A stretch of DNA of 64,000 nt from a virus: IMG/VR virus record IMGVR_UViG_3300049137_000157, positions 32,001-96,000 of that record. One strand, written 5' to 3'. The position numbers and the translations under genes were made by a program. The notes beneath the pieces were generated by a model that searched no databases, was not told the origin of the DNA, and was given only the letters and a program-made list of their open reading frames with translations. Shown in pieces: positions 3,893-57,578 of the stretch; position 1 is the stretch's first letter, and the number at the start of each line of letters is the position of its first letter.

Positions 3893-4648
3893 TCACTTGC
3901 TGCGCAGAGTGCGGGCGTAGTCCTCGAAGCGGGCCTTGGCAATGATCTTGCGGTCCTCGGTCCGCAGGACGATCCCTTCGGCCTGACCCTTCGCTCCGTC
4001 GTCGAGTGCGACACGGGTGGAGGGGAGGGCGTCGAGAAGCCACTGCTGCATGCCCGCGATGCCCTTGGGGAGAGCCTGGGCCGGGACGCGACCGAGTCGC
4101 GGGGTCAGGGGGATGTTGACGGCGAGGGCGTAGTTCAGCATCTCGGTCTCGGTGTGGAAGTCCTGTCCGCCGTTGTCCCGCCAGGAGGCGATGCGCTCCC
4201 GGTTCCAGGTGAGGACGTCCGGGTTGAAGCGCGCGATGTCGAAGAGGCGGTAGCCGGTGAGGCCGGTGGTGGAGTACTGCTTGGCTGCTGCGCCGATGCC
4301 CGAGCCGTAGACCTCCAGGAAGAGGGTGTAGATCTGACCCGTGTCGGTGGGCTTGGCGAGCTGCTCCGCAAGGGGCCGCAGGGCGCTGACGATGCCGAGC
4401 GTCGGGTTGGCCACCCGGTCACCCTTGGCGTACAGGAGTTCCTTGCGCGAACCGATGAGGTAGTCGCCGTCGGGGAAGAGGACGATGCGCCCGTTGGTGC
4501 CGTCGACCTTCTCGGTGAGGACGACATCGCCCTCGAACTCCGTGGCCTCGTCGGTGAGGCGGCCCTTGTTGCCCAGTGCGTGGTACGTGAAGATGCTCGG
4601 GTACTGCGTGGCCGAGTCGATCTCCGGAAGCCTGTTCGGATCGAACAT
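3893..4648 (-). CDS. ATP-dependent RNA ligase, Rnl2-like adenylyltransferase domain (251 aa)
   Basis: nucleotidyltransferase motifs TEKVDGTN, FLEVYG, LFDI, EGIV, AKAR; RBS GGAGAAGGAC before ATG 4648. Confidence 0.88.
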   Translation of the reverse strand: MFDPNRLPEIDSATQYPSIFTYHALGNKGRLTDEATEFEGDVVLTEKVDGTNGRIVLFPDGDYLIGSRKELLYAKGDRVANPTLGIVSALRPLAEQLAKPTDTGQIYTLFLEVYGSGIGAAAKQYSTTGLTGYRLFDIARFNPDVLTWNRERIASWRDNGGQDFHTETEMLNYALAVNIPLTPRLGRVPAQALPKGIAGMQQWLLDALPSTRVALDDGAKGQAEGIVLRTEDRKIIAKARFEDYARTLRSK

Positions 4649-16945: not shown

Positions 16946-17694
16946 AAATGGGGCCCCGCAGCCACCAACAAGTAAAAGAACTATATGTTGGCCGCTTCGG
17001 CCAAGCCACGACTTCGTCGCGTCTCGTCCTTCGCTCCGGACCTTCCGGTCCCCTACGGCGGCCAGCCGCCATCCCGGATGGGCTTCGCCCACCGGGCTGT
17101 CACCTGTCCACCTTCAGGAACCTCCAGGTCTTTCTCTTGAACCCGCGCGTGCGCACAAGGATCAGCCCCTGCTGATGTGATCGAAGATCAACTCCTCCCC
17201 CTCCAGCCGTGATCGCTTCGCGATCACTCCGTTTTTCGCGCGCGCGAGGCTCTCGCCGGGGAGGGAGGAAGAGGATTTGGATCTTCGATCCGGACAACCC
17301 CGGGCCATCGCGTCGGCCGGGCCCCGTGGTCGGGTGCGGGACTGCTGCGGCCTACCGGGGCCAGGGTCCGGTCCTCGCCTCCGGGTCCCACGGGGATCTC
17401 TGAGCGGCCTTCTCCGGGCTTCCCGGCCCATTCGGGTCCCCGAGTCCGGGCTGGACCCTCACAGGGCCTCTCGGGGCTTTCTGGCGGACCGCCGTCACGG
17501 GACCCCCGCCGGACACCACGCCTGCGCACCCTCGGGTTCCGACCCGGGCCCGACGACCCCGGTGTTCGCCTCGTCGCGGTCCAGCCGTCGTCCGGGGCAC
17601 CTCAAGGGAAAGACAACGAAAGGAGGAAAAAGGGGGACCTTCGGTTCCGCTTGAATGTTCGGCTCACCACCGGCTTTTGTGACAGAGTCGGTCC

Positions 17695-25134: not shown

Positions 25135-25180
25135 CCCACCAGAGGCCCGAGTCCCCGCACCGTGGGCTCGGGCCTCTGGG
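25135..25180 (+). terminator. GC-rich hairpin between 24678..25121 and the TraB-like gene
   Basis: CCAGAGGCCCGAG...CTCGGGCCTCTGG. Confidence 0.55.
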
Positions 25181-25233
25181 CTGTTCCCGTTCGCACGAAT
25201 TTCCGACTGATCATCAGAAAGGAGTTGAACCCC

Positions 25234-26520
25234 GTGCTCACCGCATCCGAGGAGGAGCAGCGGCTCCTCGACCTGCTCACCCCCAAGTGGTGGGCGGAGC
25301 AGAGCGTCACCAAGGGAATCAGGGACACCAAGCTCCTGAAGGTTGACCTCACGGAGTCCGGGGTGACCGTTGGTCTGGAACTCACGGGAAGTTCCGACAT
25401 CGTCGAACTGCGCAAGAAGATCGGAAGCCTTCGAGTTCTGCTTCAAGTCGAGGACGAAACGATCCTCGACCTGCTTCCCGGCGGGCGCGCCCACCTTGTC
25501 TCCGTCTCTGTGCGCACTCGATATGTGACCGACGACGAGGACCTGCTGTGGCACCCAGGTCGAGAGGGCCTCGGGCTGGACACCCTGACGGGTAAACCCG
25601 TGTCGGTCCCGTACCACGAGCGTCTGCTTCTGGGCGGCTCCTCGGGATCGGGCAAGTCGTGGACCATGCGCCCCTACGTCGCGAGGACCCTCACGATCCC
25701 GCACATCGAAATCGGCTGGTTCGTGGACGGAAAGGTCGACGAGGGGAACAAGTGGAAGGGCATTCTTCCCCGGATCTACAGCGGCCCGTCCGGGTGCGTG
25801 GAGGCCGTCGAGGACGGTTTCGACGAGCTGACGCGCCGTACGTTGCTGATGGAGCAGGAGGGCCTGTCCAAGTGGGACACCCGCCTCGGCCCCATCAAGA
25901 TCTTCTTCGTGGACGAGGGCTTCTCCATCATCTCCAGCCTCAAGGACGAGGAGAAGTACCGCAAGGAACAGCGGGAAAGGGGTGACCCTCAGGAACGCAG
26001 GTTGACGGTCCGGCTGAGCGAGCTGTCGACGCAGGGCCGGAGCAAGGGCATCGTCGTGGTGTGGTGCACGCAGAACCCGACGCGCGCCGGAGAGCAGCCT
26101 GGAATCCTGCCGCAGGTAGTGGCGAACATCGACTACCGGATCGGTCTGCGTACGCAGGACGAGGACAACACGAAGGTCATCTTCGCGGGGCGTCCGGCTG
26201 GCCTGGACACGCACCTGATTCCTCCGGGGGACAGGTACCGGGGGTACTGGTACCTGAACGCTCACGGCCCGAGCCTCGTACGTTCTTGGACCATCTCGGA
26301 CGAGATGATCCCGCTGCTCGCTTATCCCGATCTCGGGCGTGGCCGGTGGCCTCGCGACATCGCACTGAAGACCCTGCGGTCCCACGACGGCTGGTGGGAT
26401 GCCGAGCGGCTGGCGGCGAAGACGGGGTGCGGCACGGAGCAGGCTCGCAAGTTCCTGAACTCGTTCAGTCGAGAGGGCCTTGGCCGGATGGATCAGGGAC
26501 GCTTCGAGTTGGTGCGATAA
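25234..26520 (+). CDS. FtsK/SpoIIIE-family DNA translocase, Streptomyces TraB-like (428 aa)
   Basis: Walker A GGSSGSGKS, Walker B FFVDEG, QGRSKGI...CTQNP, C-terminal wHTH; AAGGAG RBS before GTG. Confidence 0.85.
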   Translation: MLTASEEEQRLLDLLTPKWWAEQSVTKGIRDTKLLKVDLTESGVTVGLELTGSSDIVELRKKIGSLRVLLQVEDETILDLLPGGRAHLVSVSVRTRYVTDDEDLLWHPGREGLGLDTLTGKPVSVPYHERLLLGGSSGSGKSWTMRPYVARTLTIPHIEIGWFVDGKVDEGNKWKGILPRIYSGPSGCVEAVEDGFDELTRRTLLMEQEGLSKWDTRLGPIKIFFVDEGFSIISSLKDEEKYRKEQRERGDPQERRLTVRLSELSTQGRSKGIVVVWCTQNPTRAGEQPGILPQVVANIDYRIGLRTQDEDNTKVIFAGRPAGLDTHLIPPGDRYRGYWYLNAHGPSLVRSWTISDEMIPLLAYPDLGRGRWPRDIALKTLRSHDGWWDAERLAAKTGCGTEQARKFLNSFSREGLGRMDQGRFELVR

Positions 26521-26532
26521 AAAAGCAGACTG

Positions 26533-26562
26533 TTGACTCCTGAAAGCAAGAACCGGTAATCT
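26533..26562 (+). promoter_or_regulatory. sigma70-type promoter TTGACT-18-TAATCT
   Basis: near-consensus hexamers in an AT-rich patch. Confidence 0.75.
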
Positions 26563-26569
26563 TAAAGCA

Positions 26570-26925
26570 GAACGAGGGGATGCCAACCCCTCGCAGGGCA
26601 CAGACCCGCGAGCACTGGAGCCAACCAGAACTCGCGGGGACCCGCCTTCTTCCGCTTCAGTCGGTCTATCCCCCACTGAATCGGAGCATCTCGCAGTCTG
26701 CCGCCAGGAGTCAGGCGGGCAGCGGGGCGGCGACCGCACGTGATGCGCACCCGACGGCCAATCGGGTAGGCGGGCTCGCGACCCGCGTCGTCGACTGGTA
26801 CCGCCTTGCGTCGAGGGGAAGCTGGACACTTCACAAGGGACGACGCGGGGCGGTACTTCTTAGCTGGGCGGCGGCTGCCGCTCTCGTGACCTCCGGACGG
26901 GACGCGAGAAGCAGCCGCCGCCCTT
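26570..26925 (+). ncRNA. candidate structured ncRNA or long leader with three GCCAA-loop hairpins
   Basis: at least 7 stems seen by eye; starts just after a strong promoter; no credible ORF. Confidence 0.5.
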
Positions 26926-26960
26926 CCGTATCCGGAAAGGCAAAAGGAAGAGGTATCAGC

Positions 26961-27200
26961 GTGGCTAAGCGTGGCGGAAACGGTGGCAGGGTCGGCCGAG
27001 AGCCCGGACCGCAGGGCGGTCGCGTCAACTACAGCAGCCCCGGCCGAGCGGGCACCGCAGCGGTCTCCCCGCACGGCCCCTGCAACGGCTCCGGAGTGAT
27101 CGAGACCGTCCAGCCCGAGACCGGGAACGTTTCCTCGCAGGACTGCGAGCCGTGCCGGGGTAGCGGCCGGACCTTCTGGGGCAAGAAGAACGGCGCGTGA
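26961..27200 (+). CDS. small protein with DnaJ-type zinc motif (79 aa)
   Basis: strong RBS; PCNGSG...CEPCRGSG. Confidence 0.65.
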   Translation: MAKRGGNGGRVGREPGPQGGRVNYSSPGRAGTAAVSPHGPCNGSGVIETVQPETGNVSSQDCEPCRGSGRTFWGKKNGA

Positions 27201-27390
27201 GGATCGGATAACAGCAAGATCCGCCACTTGCTCTCCAGGGCCAAGCCGACGGATCCGAGATCCTGAATAGCCAGTGAAGTCGGTGGTATTGCTTGCAGCA
27301 TCACAGGGCCCCTCTTCGGAGGGGCCTTTTGCTCTTGTCCGAAATCGGTACGATCACCGTACTGTCCCGTGGGGAATAAGGGGATCCGAC

Positions 27391-27759
27391 GTGCCGGAGC
27401 AGGTAGAGATCGGTGGCGAAATCCTCCGTCCGGGTGATGAGGTTCTCGTCTGTGGTGGTCCGTTCGGCAAGCCTCAGCGGCGGGCCCGGGTCGCAGGGAT
27501 TGGGACCCGGCGAATCATCCTGAACGAGGGTGGAACCGAGACGGCGTACAGCCTGGAGACCCGTTCCACCGGGGGGAACTACCGGAACCGACGGACCTTC
27601 CGCACCCTCACGGAGCAGGCTGGAATCGACGAACGAGAAGACCTGAAACGTCAGCTCTTCGATCTAGGTTTCATGGAAACCAGCATTGGCAGACTGAACG
27701 TTTATTCAACATGTACGCTGCATCAGATCGTGGAGATTCTGAAGGAGAACGCAGCGTGA
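27391..27759 (+). CDS. hypothetical beta-rich phage-like protein (122 aa)
   Basis: GTG after AAGGGA; EILRPGDEVLV SH3/KOW-like start. Confidence 0.65.
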   Translation: MPEQVEIGGEILRPGDEVLVCGGPFGKPQRRARVAGIGTRRIILNEGGTETAYSLETRSTGGNYRNRRTFRTLTEQAGIDEREDLKRQLFDLGFMETSIGRLNVYSTCTLHQIVEILKENAA

Positions 27760-56072: not shown

Positions 56073-57578
56073 GTGACGTTCAAACTCACGGACGAACAGC
56101 AGTACGCGGTCGACCTTGCAGGCAAGGGCGAGCGCACCAAGGTCATCGCCCCTGCCGGATCGGGCAAGTCCAAGACGGCCGAGGAGATGGCCAGGGCGAT
56201 GATCCGGGCTGGCAAGCGGAACATCCTCTATCTGGTCTACAACACCGAGGCCCGGCGCGACGCCGAACGGCGCTTCAAGGGACTGGACCAGGTCAAGGTC
56301 CGGACGACCAGTCAGATCGGCTACCGGGCCTTCGCCGGTACCCACAAGGATCGCATGAACTTCAAGACGGCCCCCAAGGTCCCGAGCTGGCAGTTGGCGG
56401 AATGGCTCAAGTTGAAGCCGCTGAACTTCGGGGACGGGCTCGTCCTTGACGGGCCCCAGCAGGCCCTGTACGCCACAAGGGCGATCGACCAGTTCTGCTC
56501 TTCCAACCGCCGGTCCATCACCGCCGACGATGTCCCGTTGGAGATGCATGGAGTCGACGACTCCGCGCTGAAGTCGGTCAAGACGGCCATCGCCACACTG
56601 GCGCAGAGCATCTGGTTCGACGCCAAGCGCGCCGGATCCCGCTTCCCGTTCGACATGACCATGGCCTTCAAGCATGTCGCCCTCGACGGCAAGGACGAGG
56701 GCTACGACGCGGTTCTGCTCGACGAGGCGCAGGACTCCAACGACAACACCATGGCGTACCTCAACAACCAGGAGAACGCTCAGATCTGCGTGCTCGGAGA
56801 CCCTGCGCAGACCCTCTACGCCTGGAGGGGGTCGACAGACCAGATCCTTCAGTTCGACGGAGTCCCGGCCCCCCTCACGCAGAGCTTCCGATTCGGCGAG
56901 GCCATCGCCGAGGAGGCAATGAAGCACCTTCCGTTCACGGAGACCGGGGTTGTCGTGAAGGGCCTGCCGAGCATCCGGGACAAGGTGTTCTACGGCGGGA
57001 TGGAGAAGCCGGACGTCGTCCTCACCCGGACGAACGTGGGCTCCATGTCCTACGCGCTCTCCCTCATGGAGGCGGGTTACCGAGTGGCACTCGTCAAGGG
57101 AGCCGACCCCATTCGGTCGCTGGCCTTCGCCGCGATCGAGCTGCGCAAGGGCAAGCGGCCCACCCGGAACATCGAGTTGTCCGCGTTCGAGGACTGGTCC
57201 GAGCTGGTGTCCTTCACGGAGGAGCCCAGCGGTGGCCATCTGAAGGCGCTGGTGAACCTCGTGAACATCCACGGCACCAAGCCCCTGATCGATGCGTGCG
57301 GCAACATCGTCCCGTACAGCGCTCGCAACCCTCAGCACGACGTCGCGGTGACCACGTGCCACTCCATCAAGGGACTGGAGTGGGACAACGTCCTCATCGG
57401 TGACGATTTCGACGAGCCGAAGCCGCACGTCGACCCGAAGACCGAAGAGGTCACCCCGGGAGAGATCAAGCGATTCGACGCGATGGTGAACTACGTGGCC
57501 GTCAGTCGAGCACGTAAGGCTCTCGACGCCGAGGGCCTGGCGTGGATCAACAAGTACCTGGAATCTGCGACGACGTAA
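56073..57578 (+). CDS. UvrD/Rep-like SF1 helicase (501 aa)
   Basis: LTDEQ, APAGSGKS, LDEAQD, GDPAQTLYAWRG, QSFRFG, HSIKGLEWD, YVAVSRAR. Confidence 0.93.
   Translation: MTFKLTDEQQYAVDLAGKGERTKVIAPAGSGKSKTAEEMARAMIRAGKRNILYLVYNTEARRDAERRFKGLDQVKVRTTSQIGYRAFAGTHKDRMNFKTAPKVPSWQLAEWLKLKPLNFGDGLVLDGPQQALYATRAIDQFCSSNRRSITADDVPLEMHGVDDSALKSVKTAIATLAQSIWFDAKRAGSRFPFDMTMAFKHVALDGKDEGYDAVLLDEAQDSNDNTMAYLNNQENAQICVLGDPAQTLYAWRGSTDQILQFDGVPAPLTQSFRFGEAIAEEAMKHLPFTETGVVVKGLPSIRDKVFYGGMEKPDVVLTRTNVGSMSYALSLMEAGYRVALVKGADPIRSLAFAAIELRKGKRPTRNIELSAFEDWSELVSFTEEPSGGHLKALVNLVNIHGTKPLIDACGNIVPYSARNPQHDVAVTTCHSIKGLEWDNVLIGDDFDEPKPHVDPKTEEVTPGEIKRFDAMVNYVAVSRARKALDAEGLAWINKYLESATT

Follow-up and report, generated by a model that had tools for sequence, protein, structure and literature searches.

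The CsrB and RsmZ sponges carry one short motif in the exposed loops of unlike hairpins, behind a strong promoter. The thrS operator of Escherichia coli is a case of anticodon-arm mimicry in an mRNA leader, lambda/P22 boxB-nut and HK022 put are promoter-proximal antitermination RNA elements of phages, and the tRNA gene cluster of phage T4 contains two small stable RNAs, species 1 and 2, whose function is unknown. Here we analysed a window of 64,000 nucleotides (nt), bases 32001-96000 of the 199,468-bp virus record IMGVR_UViG_3300049137_000157 (direct terminal repeats, 64% GC), and in it the stretch 26533-26960, where a promoter is followed by a series of hairpins, three of which (H1, H2 and H5) have loops that end in GCCAA. 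The gene directly upstream (~25165..26520) encodes an FtsK/SpoIIIE-like ATPase, and the closest counterpart of the stretch was found in the same slot of cluster BM Streptomyces phages, as the leader of a tRNA operon. BM phages carry 13-15 tRNAs (PMC6687918, PMC10652959). Coordinates are given in window numbering unless prefixed L003-L013 (relatives) or G000 (whole genome).

In the reading that we favour, and to which we give about an even chance, 26564-26960 is the transcribed, structured 5' leader of a one-gene unit, possibly processed to a stable RNA, with its loops as docking sites. The unit comprises a promoter (26534-26563), the leader, a gene of 79 amino acids (aa; 26961-27200) and a terminator (27305-27338). 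The original prediction had proposed a candidate structured RNA of ~355 nt. Its RNA interpretation stood in so far as the stretch is non-coding, unusually structured and placed behind a promoter that is position-conserved in nine relatives, but a discrete ~355-nt RNA was not borne out, as no U-tract terminator was found on the + strand within 26533-26960 and the first one lies at 27305-27338. Because this sole canonical terminator comes after the small gene, a 5' leader is the default reading. We infer transcription, the RNA ends and any binding, and word them conditionally below.

To place the locus, we compared it with its relatives. The closest FtsK-like proteins were 40-47% identical and belonged to cluster BM Streptomyces phages and to metagenome or assembly contigs; the matched cluster BM phages, with genomes of 184-200 kb, were Satis, Kradal, Quantum, EhyElimayoE, Frankenweenie, JustBecause and Kela. 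Since no FtsK-like protein above 47% identity was found among the 5.8 billion protein clusters searched, we regard the phage as a distant relative of cluster BM that so far stands alone. A related-locus search in viral and genome contigs also returned no closer relative. All nine distinct relatives (L003-L013) showed the same build directly after the FtsK-like gene: a promoter of the form TTGAC(C/A)-17/18-TA(G/A)NNT, a three-hairpin leader of ~110 nt, a tRNA-Ile(GAU) gene (in two contigs, tRNA-Met or a tRNA-like gene instead), one or two unusual tRNA-like genes whose anticodon arms are abnormal, and at the end an GGAAGAGG-type ribosome-binding site (RBS) followed by a small open reading frame (ORF).

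The promoter of the window unit and H1 line up column by column with their counterparts in the relatives, the promoter and the first leader hairpin, and every one of these loops starts with AU. The position also agreed with that of the BM leader: the element follows the FtsK-like gene, the promoter is conserved and the first hairpin begins ~11 nt past the -10 element. Beyond the slot, the TTGAC-17/18-TAnnnT promoter and the AU-starting first loop, the window unit shares with the BM operon the type of RBS, the small ORF and a fixed short motif at the 3' side of several loops over variable stems. It differs in that the motif is GCCAA and not UCCGAC/UCCGAA, in that tRNA-Ile and the tRNA-like genes are missing, and in that the RNA body would be ~390 nt long, compared with ~110 nt before the first tRNA in BM relatives. 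The window unit appears to be a diverged counterpart of the BM promoter-plus-leader module.

The leader of the relatives (L003:5346-5456, L004:5345-5460, L005:5370-5481, L009:4349-4459, L011:3835-3946, L012:3945-4055, L013:3882-3988, L007:4446-4557 and L006:4338-4452) proved informative in its own right. In an alignment that had been fitted to the model, 94% of cells were paired and 11 of 17 pairs showed compensatory changes; in the controls, slid alignments reached 27-49% and none of 500 shuffles matched. A covariance model of this leader, R1, which stands for Satis, JustBecause, Frankenweenie and metagenome relatives, scored all nine relatives at 73-102 bits. The leader is single-copy in each genome and has no Rfam family, and looks like an undescribed RNA motif. 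Its loops have 6-9 nt. In five relatives UCCGAC stands at the 3' side of two leader loops whose stems differ, and the remaining four carry CCCUCCGAA or CCCUCUGAA in the third hairpin. This covariation-supported three-hairpin leader before tRNA-Ile in BM-type phages is the more solid by-product of our analysis, and it offers a comparative frame and a testable family.

The promoter of the window unit is of the sigma-70/HrdB type. As the original prediction had read it, TTGACT (26534-26539) and TAATCT (26558-26563) are separated by 18 nt on the + strand, which puts the predicted transcription start near 26570. Besides it, just one other + strand site in the genome has at least five of the six bases of TTGACA plus TAnnnT at 16-19 nt. 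A generic promoter scan missed it because TAATCT agrees with TATAAT at just three of six positions.

We found that the stretch behind this promoter, 26564-26960, is non-coding. Its GC content is 0.70, and GC at codon positions 1, 2 and 3 (GC1/2/3) over 26580-26960 was flat at 0.66/0.68/0.69, compared with 0.63/0.45/0.83 in the FtsK-like gene. The 206-aa ORF 26580..27200, which the original prediction had named beforehand as the feature that could overturn an RNA, thus does not show the third-position signal of a gene over this part, and gene calling on the full contig gave only 79 aa. It is extremely unlikely that this ORF is a real gene and the hairpins a codon-level coincidence. The frame is open, and a gene start was called at its ATG on a short partial contig. 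However, third-position GC stays at 0.69 over 26580-26960 and rises to 0.84 only from 26961, the ATG lies within the H1 loop, ~10 nt from the predicted 5' end and without an RBS, a good RBS precedes GTG 26961 instead, and the N-terminal 127 aa, upstream of the 79-aa gene, matched no protein family.

The non-coding stretch is also strongly structured. Against dinucleotide shuffles the whole leader gave z = -4.3 and -4.6 in two runs, where 36 sampled 390-nt windows from the genome had a mean z of -1.2 (standard deviation 1.2). One of the 36 background windows was equally low, so the leader stands at about the top 3% of the genome and is not off scale. The z values of single hairpins (-2.6 to -6.5) are inflated by the choice of boundaries, which were fitted to each hairpin.

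Three of the hairpins make up the loop triad. H1 (26573..26593, + strand; CGAGGGG-AUGCCAA-CCCCUCG) has a 7-bp stem and a 7-nt loop (-11.9 kcal/mol, z = -3.6), begins ~3 nt from the predicted 5' end and has a loop predicted to be unpaired. H2 (26605..26638, + strand) consists of CCCGCGAG/CUCGCGGG around CUGG-AGCCAA-CCAG, with 8 + 4 bp, a 2x2 internal loop and a 6-nt loop (-21.3 kcal/mol, z = -5.8); it makes up 93% of the ensemble, in which its loop is wholly unpaired. H5 (26749..26767, + strand; ACCCGA-CGGCCAA-UCGGGU), read from the sequence, has 6 bp and a 7-nt loop. All three GCCAA of 26533-26960 stand at the 3' end of hairpin loops, their loop ends are unpaired in the ensemble, and TTGGC is absent from this strand. 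Genome-wide, GCCAA occurs 164 times on this strand, and three of these copies fall here within 176 nt. The triad is real, and the earlier description of unlike stems with loops all ending in GCCAA agreed with the sequence, as did the promoter, the hairpins and the 13-bp stem of H7 at the positions given for them. This did not extend to the claim that a YrlA-like RNA ends its acceptor stem with the same GCCAA, for there the letters are half stem and half a 3-nt loop closing an acceptor-like helix.

How do these loops compare with those of known systems? CsrB/RsmZ sponges resemble the leader in the single short motif exposed in the loops of unlike hairpins and in the strong promoter. The leader has three copies only, of GCCAA and not GGA (GGA occurs just in the H4 loop), and no terminator that would define a free RNA; to our knowledge, no CsrA-type partner is known in actinobacteria. 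The CsrB-like sponge logic that had been suggested for the stretch, with CspA, Ro or a CCA reader as ligand, is speculation, and the idea of a CCA reader is weakened because the loop motif of the relatives (UCCGAC/UCCGAA) has no CCA. Like boxB-nut and put, the leader has fixed-loop hairpins just past an early promoter and before strongly structured RNA; unlike them, it has no GNRA-like pentaloops but loops of 6-7 nt. Neither boxA nor any N-like or put-like feature was identified, and no Rfam family matched. T4 species 1 and 2 are likewise structured non-tRNA RNAs in a phage tRNA-operon context, but they have no sequence relation to this leader, and here no tRNAs remain.

The thrS operator offers another comparison, as it too is a 5' leader whose hairpins have anticodon-loop-like loops, to which H1 compares through tRNA-Gly(GCC). 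The loop of H1, AUGCCAA, is one base apart from the glyV anticodon loop UUGCCAA of E. coli (an E. coli tRNA, not the host's), and U33, A37 and A38 are kept. Unlike thrS, the leader has no synthetase gene downstream, only H1 keeps U33 and the stems are longer than 5 bp. The same resemblance enters another explanation, namely that the element is a free, abundant small RNA of ~355 nt that ends at H7 and serves as a trans-acting decoy or sponge, in its sharpest form with loops that imitate the tRNA-Gly(GCC) anticodon loop and titrate a host reader. We consider this clearly improbable. A strong and nearly unique promoter, stable hairpins at both ends, the H1 loop and a slot that holds tRNAs in the relatives would all suit such an RNA. 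However, no U-tract terminator follows H7, the H2 loop has 6 nt, H5 carries G in place of U33, the stems measure 7, 4 and 6 bp and not 5, the loops of the relatives have 6-9 nt and another motif, and no tRNA model matches. It is very unlikely that the phage swapped its tRNA operon for a highly expressed RNA with three tRNA-Gly(GCC) anticodon-loop imitations that captures or senses a host reader. That reader could be glycyl-tRNA synthetase, a tRNA-modifying enzyme or a defence anticodon nuclease, and the mimicry, if true, would represent a novel type of phage counter-measure or regulator.

Returning to the 5' leader, its proposed working is as follows. Host RNA polymerase would start near 26570, H1 would cap the 5' end and H7 (26866-26923) would close the 3' side, leaving a long-lived RNA body; terminal hairpins near the 5' end protect bacterial RNAs from 5'-end-dependent decay. 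The three exposed GCCAA loop ends would offer the same docking site repeatedly to a single trans-acting factor, which may be a protein or an RNA loop. This factor might control how stable the RNA is, how it is processed or how well the 79-aa gene is translated. CU-rich segments of the leader may pair with the RBS of that gene. The tRNAs are missing from this phage, and ~300 nt of very stable hairpins occupy their space. The best argument that the loops are read by some factor is that the relatives, too, keep a fixed 3'-side loop motif over variable stems.

Several results weigh against this reading. We searched the genome for triads, defined as three hairpins in a short span that share a 5-mer at the loop end. 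Under lax criteria (stem of at least 4 bp, G-U allowed) such triads were common, with 20-30 per strand, and shuffled genomes also yielded several under comparably lax criteria. Under strict criteria, which required at least 7 bp of Watson-Crick helix in all and a span of no more than 200 nt, only the GCCAA triad was left in 199 kb on either strand and none was seen in 60 shuffled genomes. This speaks for the reading, but the thresholds were post hoc, chosen after the triad had been seen. The GCCAA motif is probably real, not proven. Furthermore, the domain around H5 (26728-26793) was no stabler than shuffles (z = -0.4), the minus strand folded equally well or better (z = -5.9), the main stems are all pure Watson-Crick, and pairing of the RBS was diffuse, so that leader control of translation is possible but not shown. 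R1 run with cmsearch and filters off found nothing at 26564-26960 (best elsewhere in the window, E >= 0.09), and blastn-short against the slots of the relatives returned promoter and RBS words only. Finally, the public copies of the stretch showed zero variants in the leader, which leaves no material for covariation in the window RNA, and no RNA run was among the public runs listed as holding the stretch.

Because both strands fold well and the main stems are pure Watson-Crick, folding does not fix the strand. Other observations favour an RNA from the + strand: the three G-U pairs of a 17-bp helix (26797-26813 with 26839-26857) would be A-C mismatches on the minus strand; the promoter, RBS, gene, terminator and all neighbouring genes lie on the + strand; and the slot in the relatives is an RNA operon. 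The same two folding results, together with the position directly downstream of the FtsK-like gene, would also be expected if the element acted as DNA, its palindromes forming a clt-like recognition locus or an operator field beside an FtsK/TraB-like translocase gene. In Streptomyces plasmids, clt is often at the traB end. We regard such a site as very doubtful. The array of 8-bp direct repeats is absent from the region, which leaves a DNA-level role without positive support; the palindromes are unlike in sequence and thus offer no common operator beyond the GCCAA loop ends; and an RNA operon with tRNAs in the relatives' slot, a GC content of 0.70 and helices that depend on G-U pairs fit RNA better.

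The loss of tRNAs from the locus allows another explanation. The phage genome contains no credible tRNA gene; the sole ARAGORN call, a doubtful tRNA-Val at 56247-56330, was not confirmed by the Rfam gathering scan. The leader could therefore be a leftover, that is, a promoter plus a long GC-rich spacer that consists of the remains of leader, spacer and tRNA stems after tRNA loss, acting as a plain 5' untranslated region, with GCCAA as chance or as a trace of an old duplication. This is rather unlikely, in our view. The 13-15 tRNAs of the relatives, set against none here, would support it, as would the hairpins that fill the relatives' slot between tRNAs, the abundance of shared-loop triads under lax criteria and a motif that is kept in no homologue. 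In addition, a cloverleaf drawn for 26728-26793 lies 1.7 kcal/mol above the minimum free energy (MFE), though this domain is no stabler than shuffles. On the other hand, we found no residual similarity to tRNA or to the spacers of the relatives. Several helices are long and perfect (z to -6.5), where decay would erode them, the triad is unique under strict criteria, and simple loss would be expected to shorten the slot.

We rejected the more specific candidate of a tRNA relic, as no tRNA model matched and the cloverleaf was not favoured. RF00005 was absent from a 91-nt search even at E up to 10, and ARAGORN found no tRNA in the leader region. Rfam 15 gave no match in the whole window at the gathering threshold and only noise (E 2-10) in 26300-27500 and 26715-26805. 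Searches for homologues of the leader were equally negative: blastn against phages and plasmids, the exact H1 pattern in viral contigs and a search for other copies in the same genome all returned nothing. A loop-anchored pattern with free stems had no match in viral contigs and 42 in metagenome contigs, all of which we attribute to chance because none has stems around the motifs.

The element is currently a singleton, and its value is that of a well-defined candidate and not of a functional finding. If the RNA is made and its loops are read, it would be a new RNA with a regulatory or decoy role in Streptomyces phages, for which hardly any non-coding RNAs have been described, and it would show how the slot of a tRNA operon can be turned to another use.

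The remaining parts of the leader, all on the + strand, are as follows. A CU-rich segment, GCCUUCUUCC (26644..26653), is able to pair with the Shine-Dalgarno region, but the evidence for this is weak: it pairs with 26946-26954 in one MFE fold, and in the ensemble the Shine-Dalgarno partners are mainly 26857-26861 and 26924-26927, with a total pairing probability of ~0.5-0.7. We rejected a clean switch by RBS sequestration, as the ensemble shows several weak competing partners instead. H3 (26651..26687; -14.0 kcal/mol, z = -4.0) and H4 (26689..26727; -19.9 kcal/mol, z = -2.6) are imperfect hairpins, the latter with an 11-nt apical loop that contains AGGAG. Between 26779 and 26857, two pairings compete for the arm 26839-26857, one with 26779-26792 (13 of 14 positions) and one with 26797-26813 (17 bp, three of them G-U). 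The first pairing is the MFE structure of one fold run, and the second is the centroid of that run and the MFE structure of another; as a hairpin, the second gave -33.1 kcal/mol and z = -5.9. The 11-bp long-range stem 26782/26839 noted earlier is thus a real pairing, but just one of two that are mutually exclusive.

H7 (26866..26923) is a 58-nt near-perfect hairpin of 13 + 7 + 3 bp (-45.3 kcal/mol, z = -6.5), with the 13-bp stem at 26866-26878/26911-26923. It has no following U-tract and was not called as a terminator. H7 could stabilise the 3' side, act as a partial terminator or provide an RNase III-type site.

Downstream of H7, the Shine-Dalgarno region AAAGGAAGAGG (26944..26954, + strand) ends 6 nt before GTG 26961, and in Satis AAGGAAGAGG(T) likewise stands before the slot's first small ORF. 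The gene that starts at this GTG (26961..27200, + strand) has GC1/2/3 of 0.65/0.66/0.84. Its protein has an Arg/Gly-rich N-terminus and one CxxCxGxG zinc-finger-like motif, which matched Pfam DnaJ_CXXCXGXG weakly and below the cut-off (E = 4.9e-4); searches for relatives gave no other match, and the protein is an orphan. The canonical intrinsic terminator at 27305..27338 (+ strand) has a 10-bp stem, a UUCG loop and a T-rich tail. The next gene, 27391-27759, codes for a protein with a phage ProQ C-terminal-like domain (PF24203, E = 6e-10). All flanking genes lie on the + strand, as does the terminator. A member of PF24203 also follows the slot in the relative L011 (5803-6180).

The other consensus-like + strand promoter of the genome, TTGAGA-18-TAGACT, lies at G000:C1 ~151865 (119865 in window numbering, outside the window) and is directly followed by an RBS and a GTG start. 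On the minus strand, 26559-26586 contains a promoter-like site, TTGGCA-16-TAAGAT, which includes the reverse complement of the H1 loop and faces the FtsK-like gene, and H1 followed by a T-rich run scores as terminator-like on that strand. Both signals at 26559-26586 are probably by-products of the AT-rich promoter patch.

All or part of the stretch was present in four soil-metagenome runs and in one JGI contig (sample 3300049171), and the leader was identical throughout. The segment 25500-28000 recurs nearly unchanged in soil-metagenome runs from different studies, two of which contain at least half of its sampled words (one of the two may be where this DNA came from), and the single difference across the public copies of this segment is one base at position 27573.

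In the relatives, the slot's second gene specifies a tRNA-like RNA whose acceptor, D arm and T arm are normal and whose anticodon arm is abnormal, with a 3- or 4-nt loop or a long insert (L004:5685-5754, L003:5685-5770, L005:5711-5796, L009:4646-4717, L011:4149-4221 and L006 about 4455-4530). ARAGORN labelled these genes as undetermined, as Pyl or with 4-base anticodons.

Elsewhere in the window, at a strand-switch region, 16972-17650 comprises ~650 nt without codon periodicity and with GC up to 0.72. It contains at least five hairpins with C(UUCG)G-type loops, among them those at 16994, 17082, 17215, 17282 and 17638, and may be a second large structured non-coding region.

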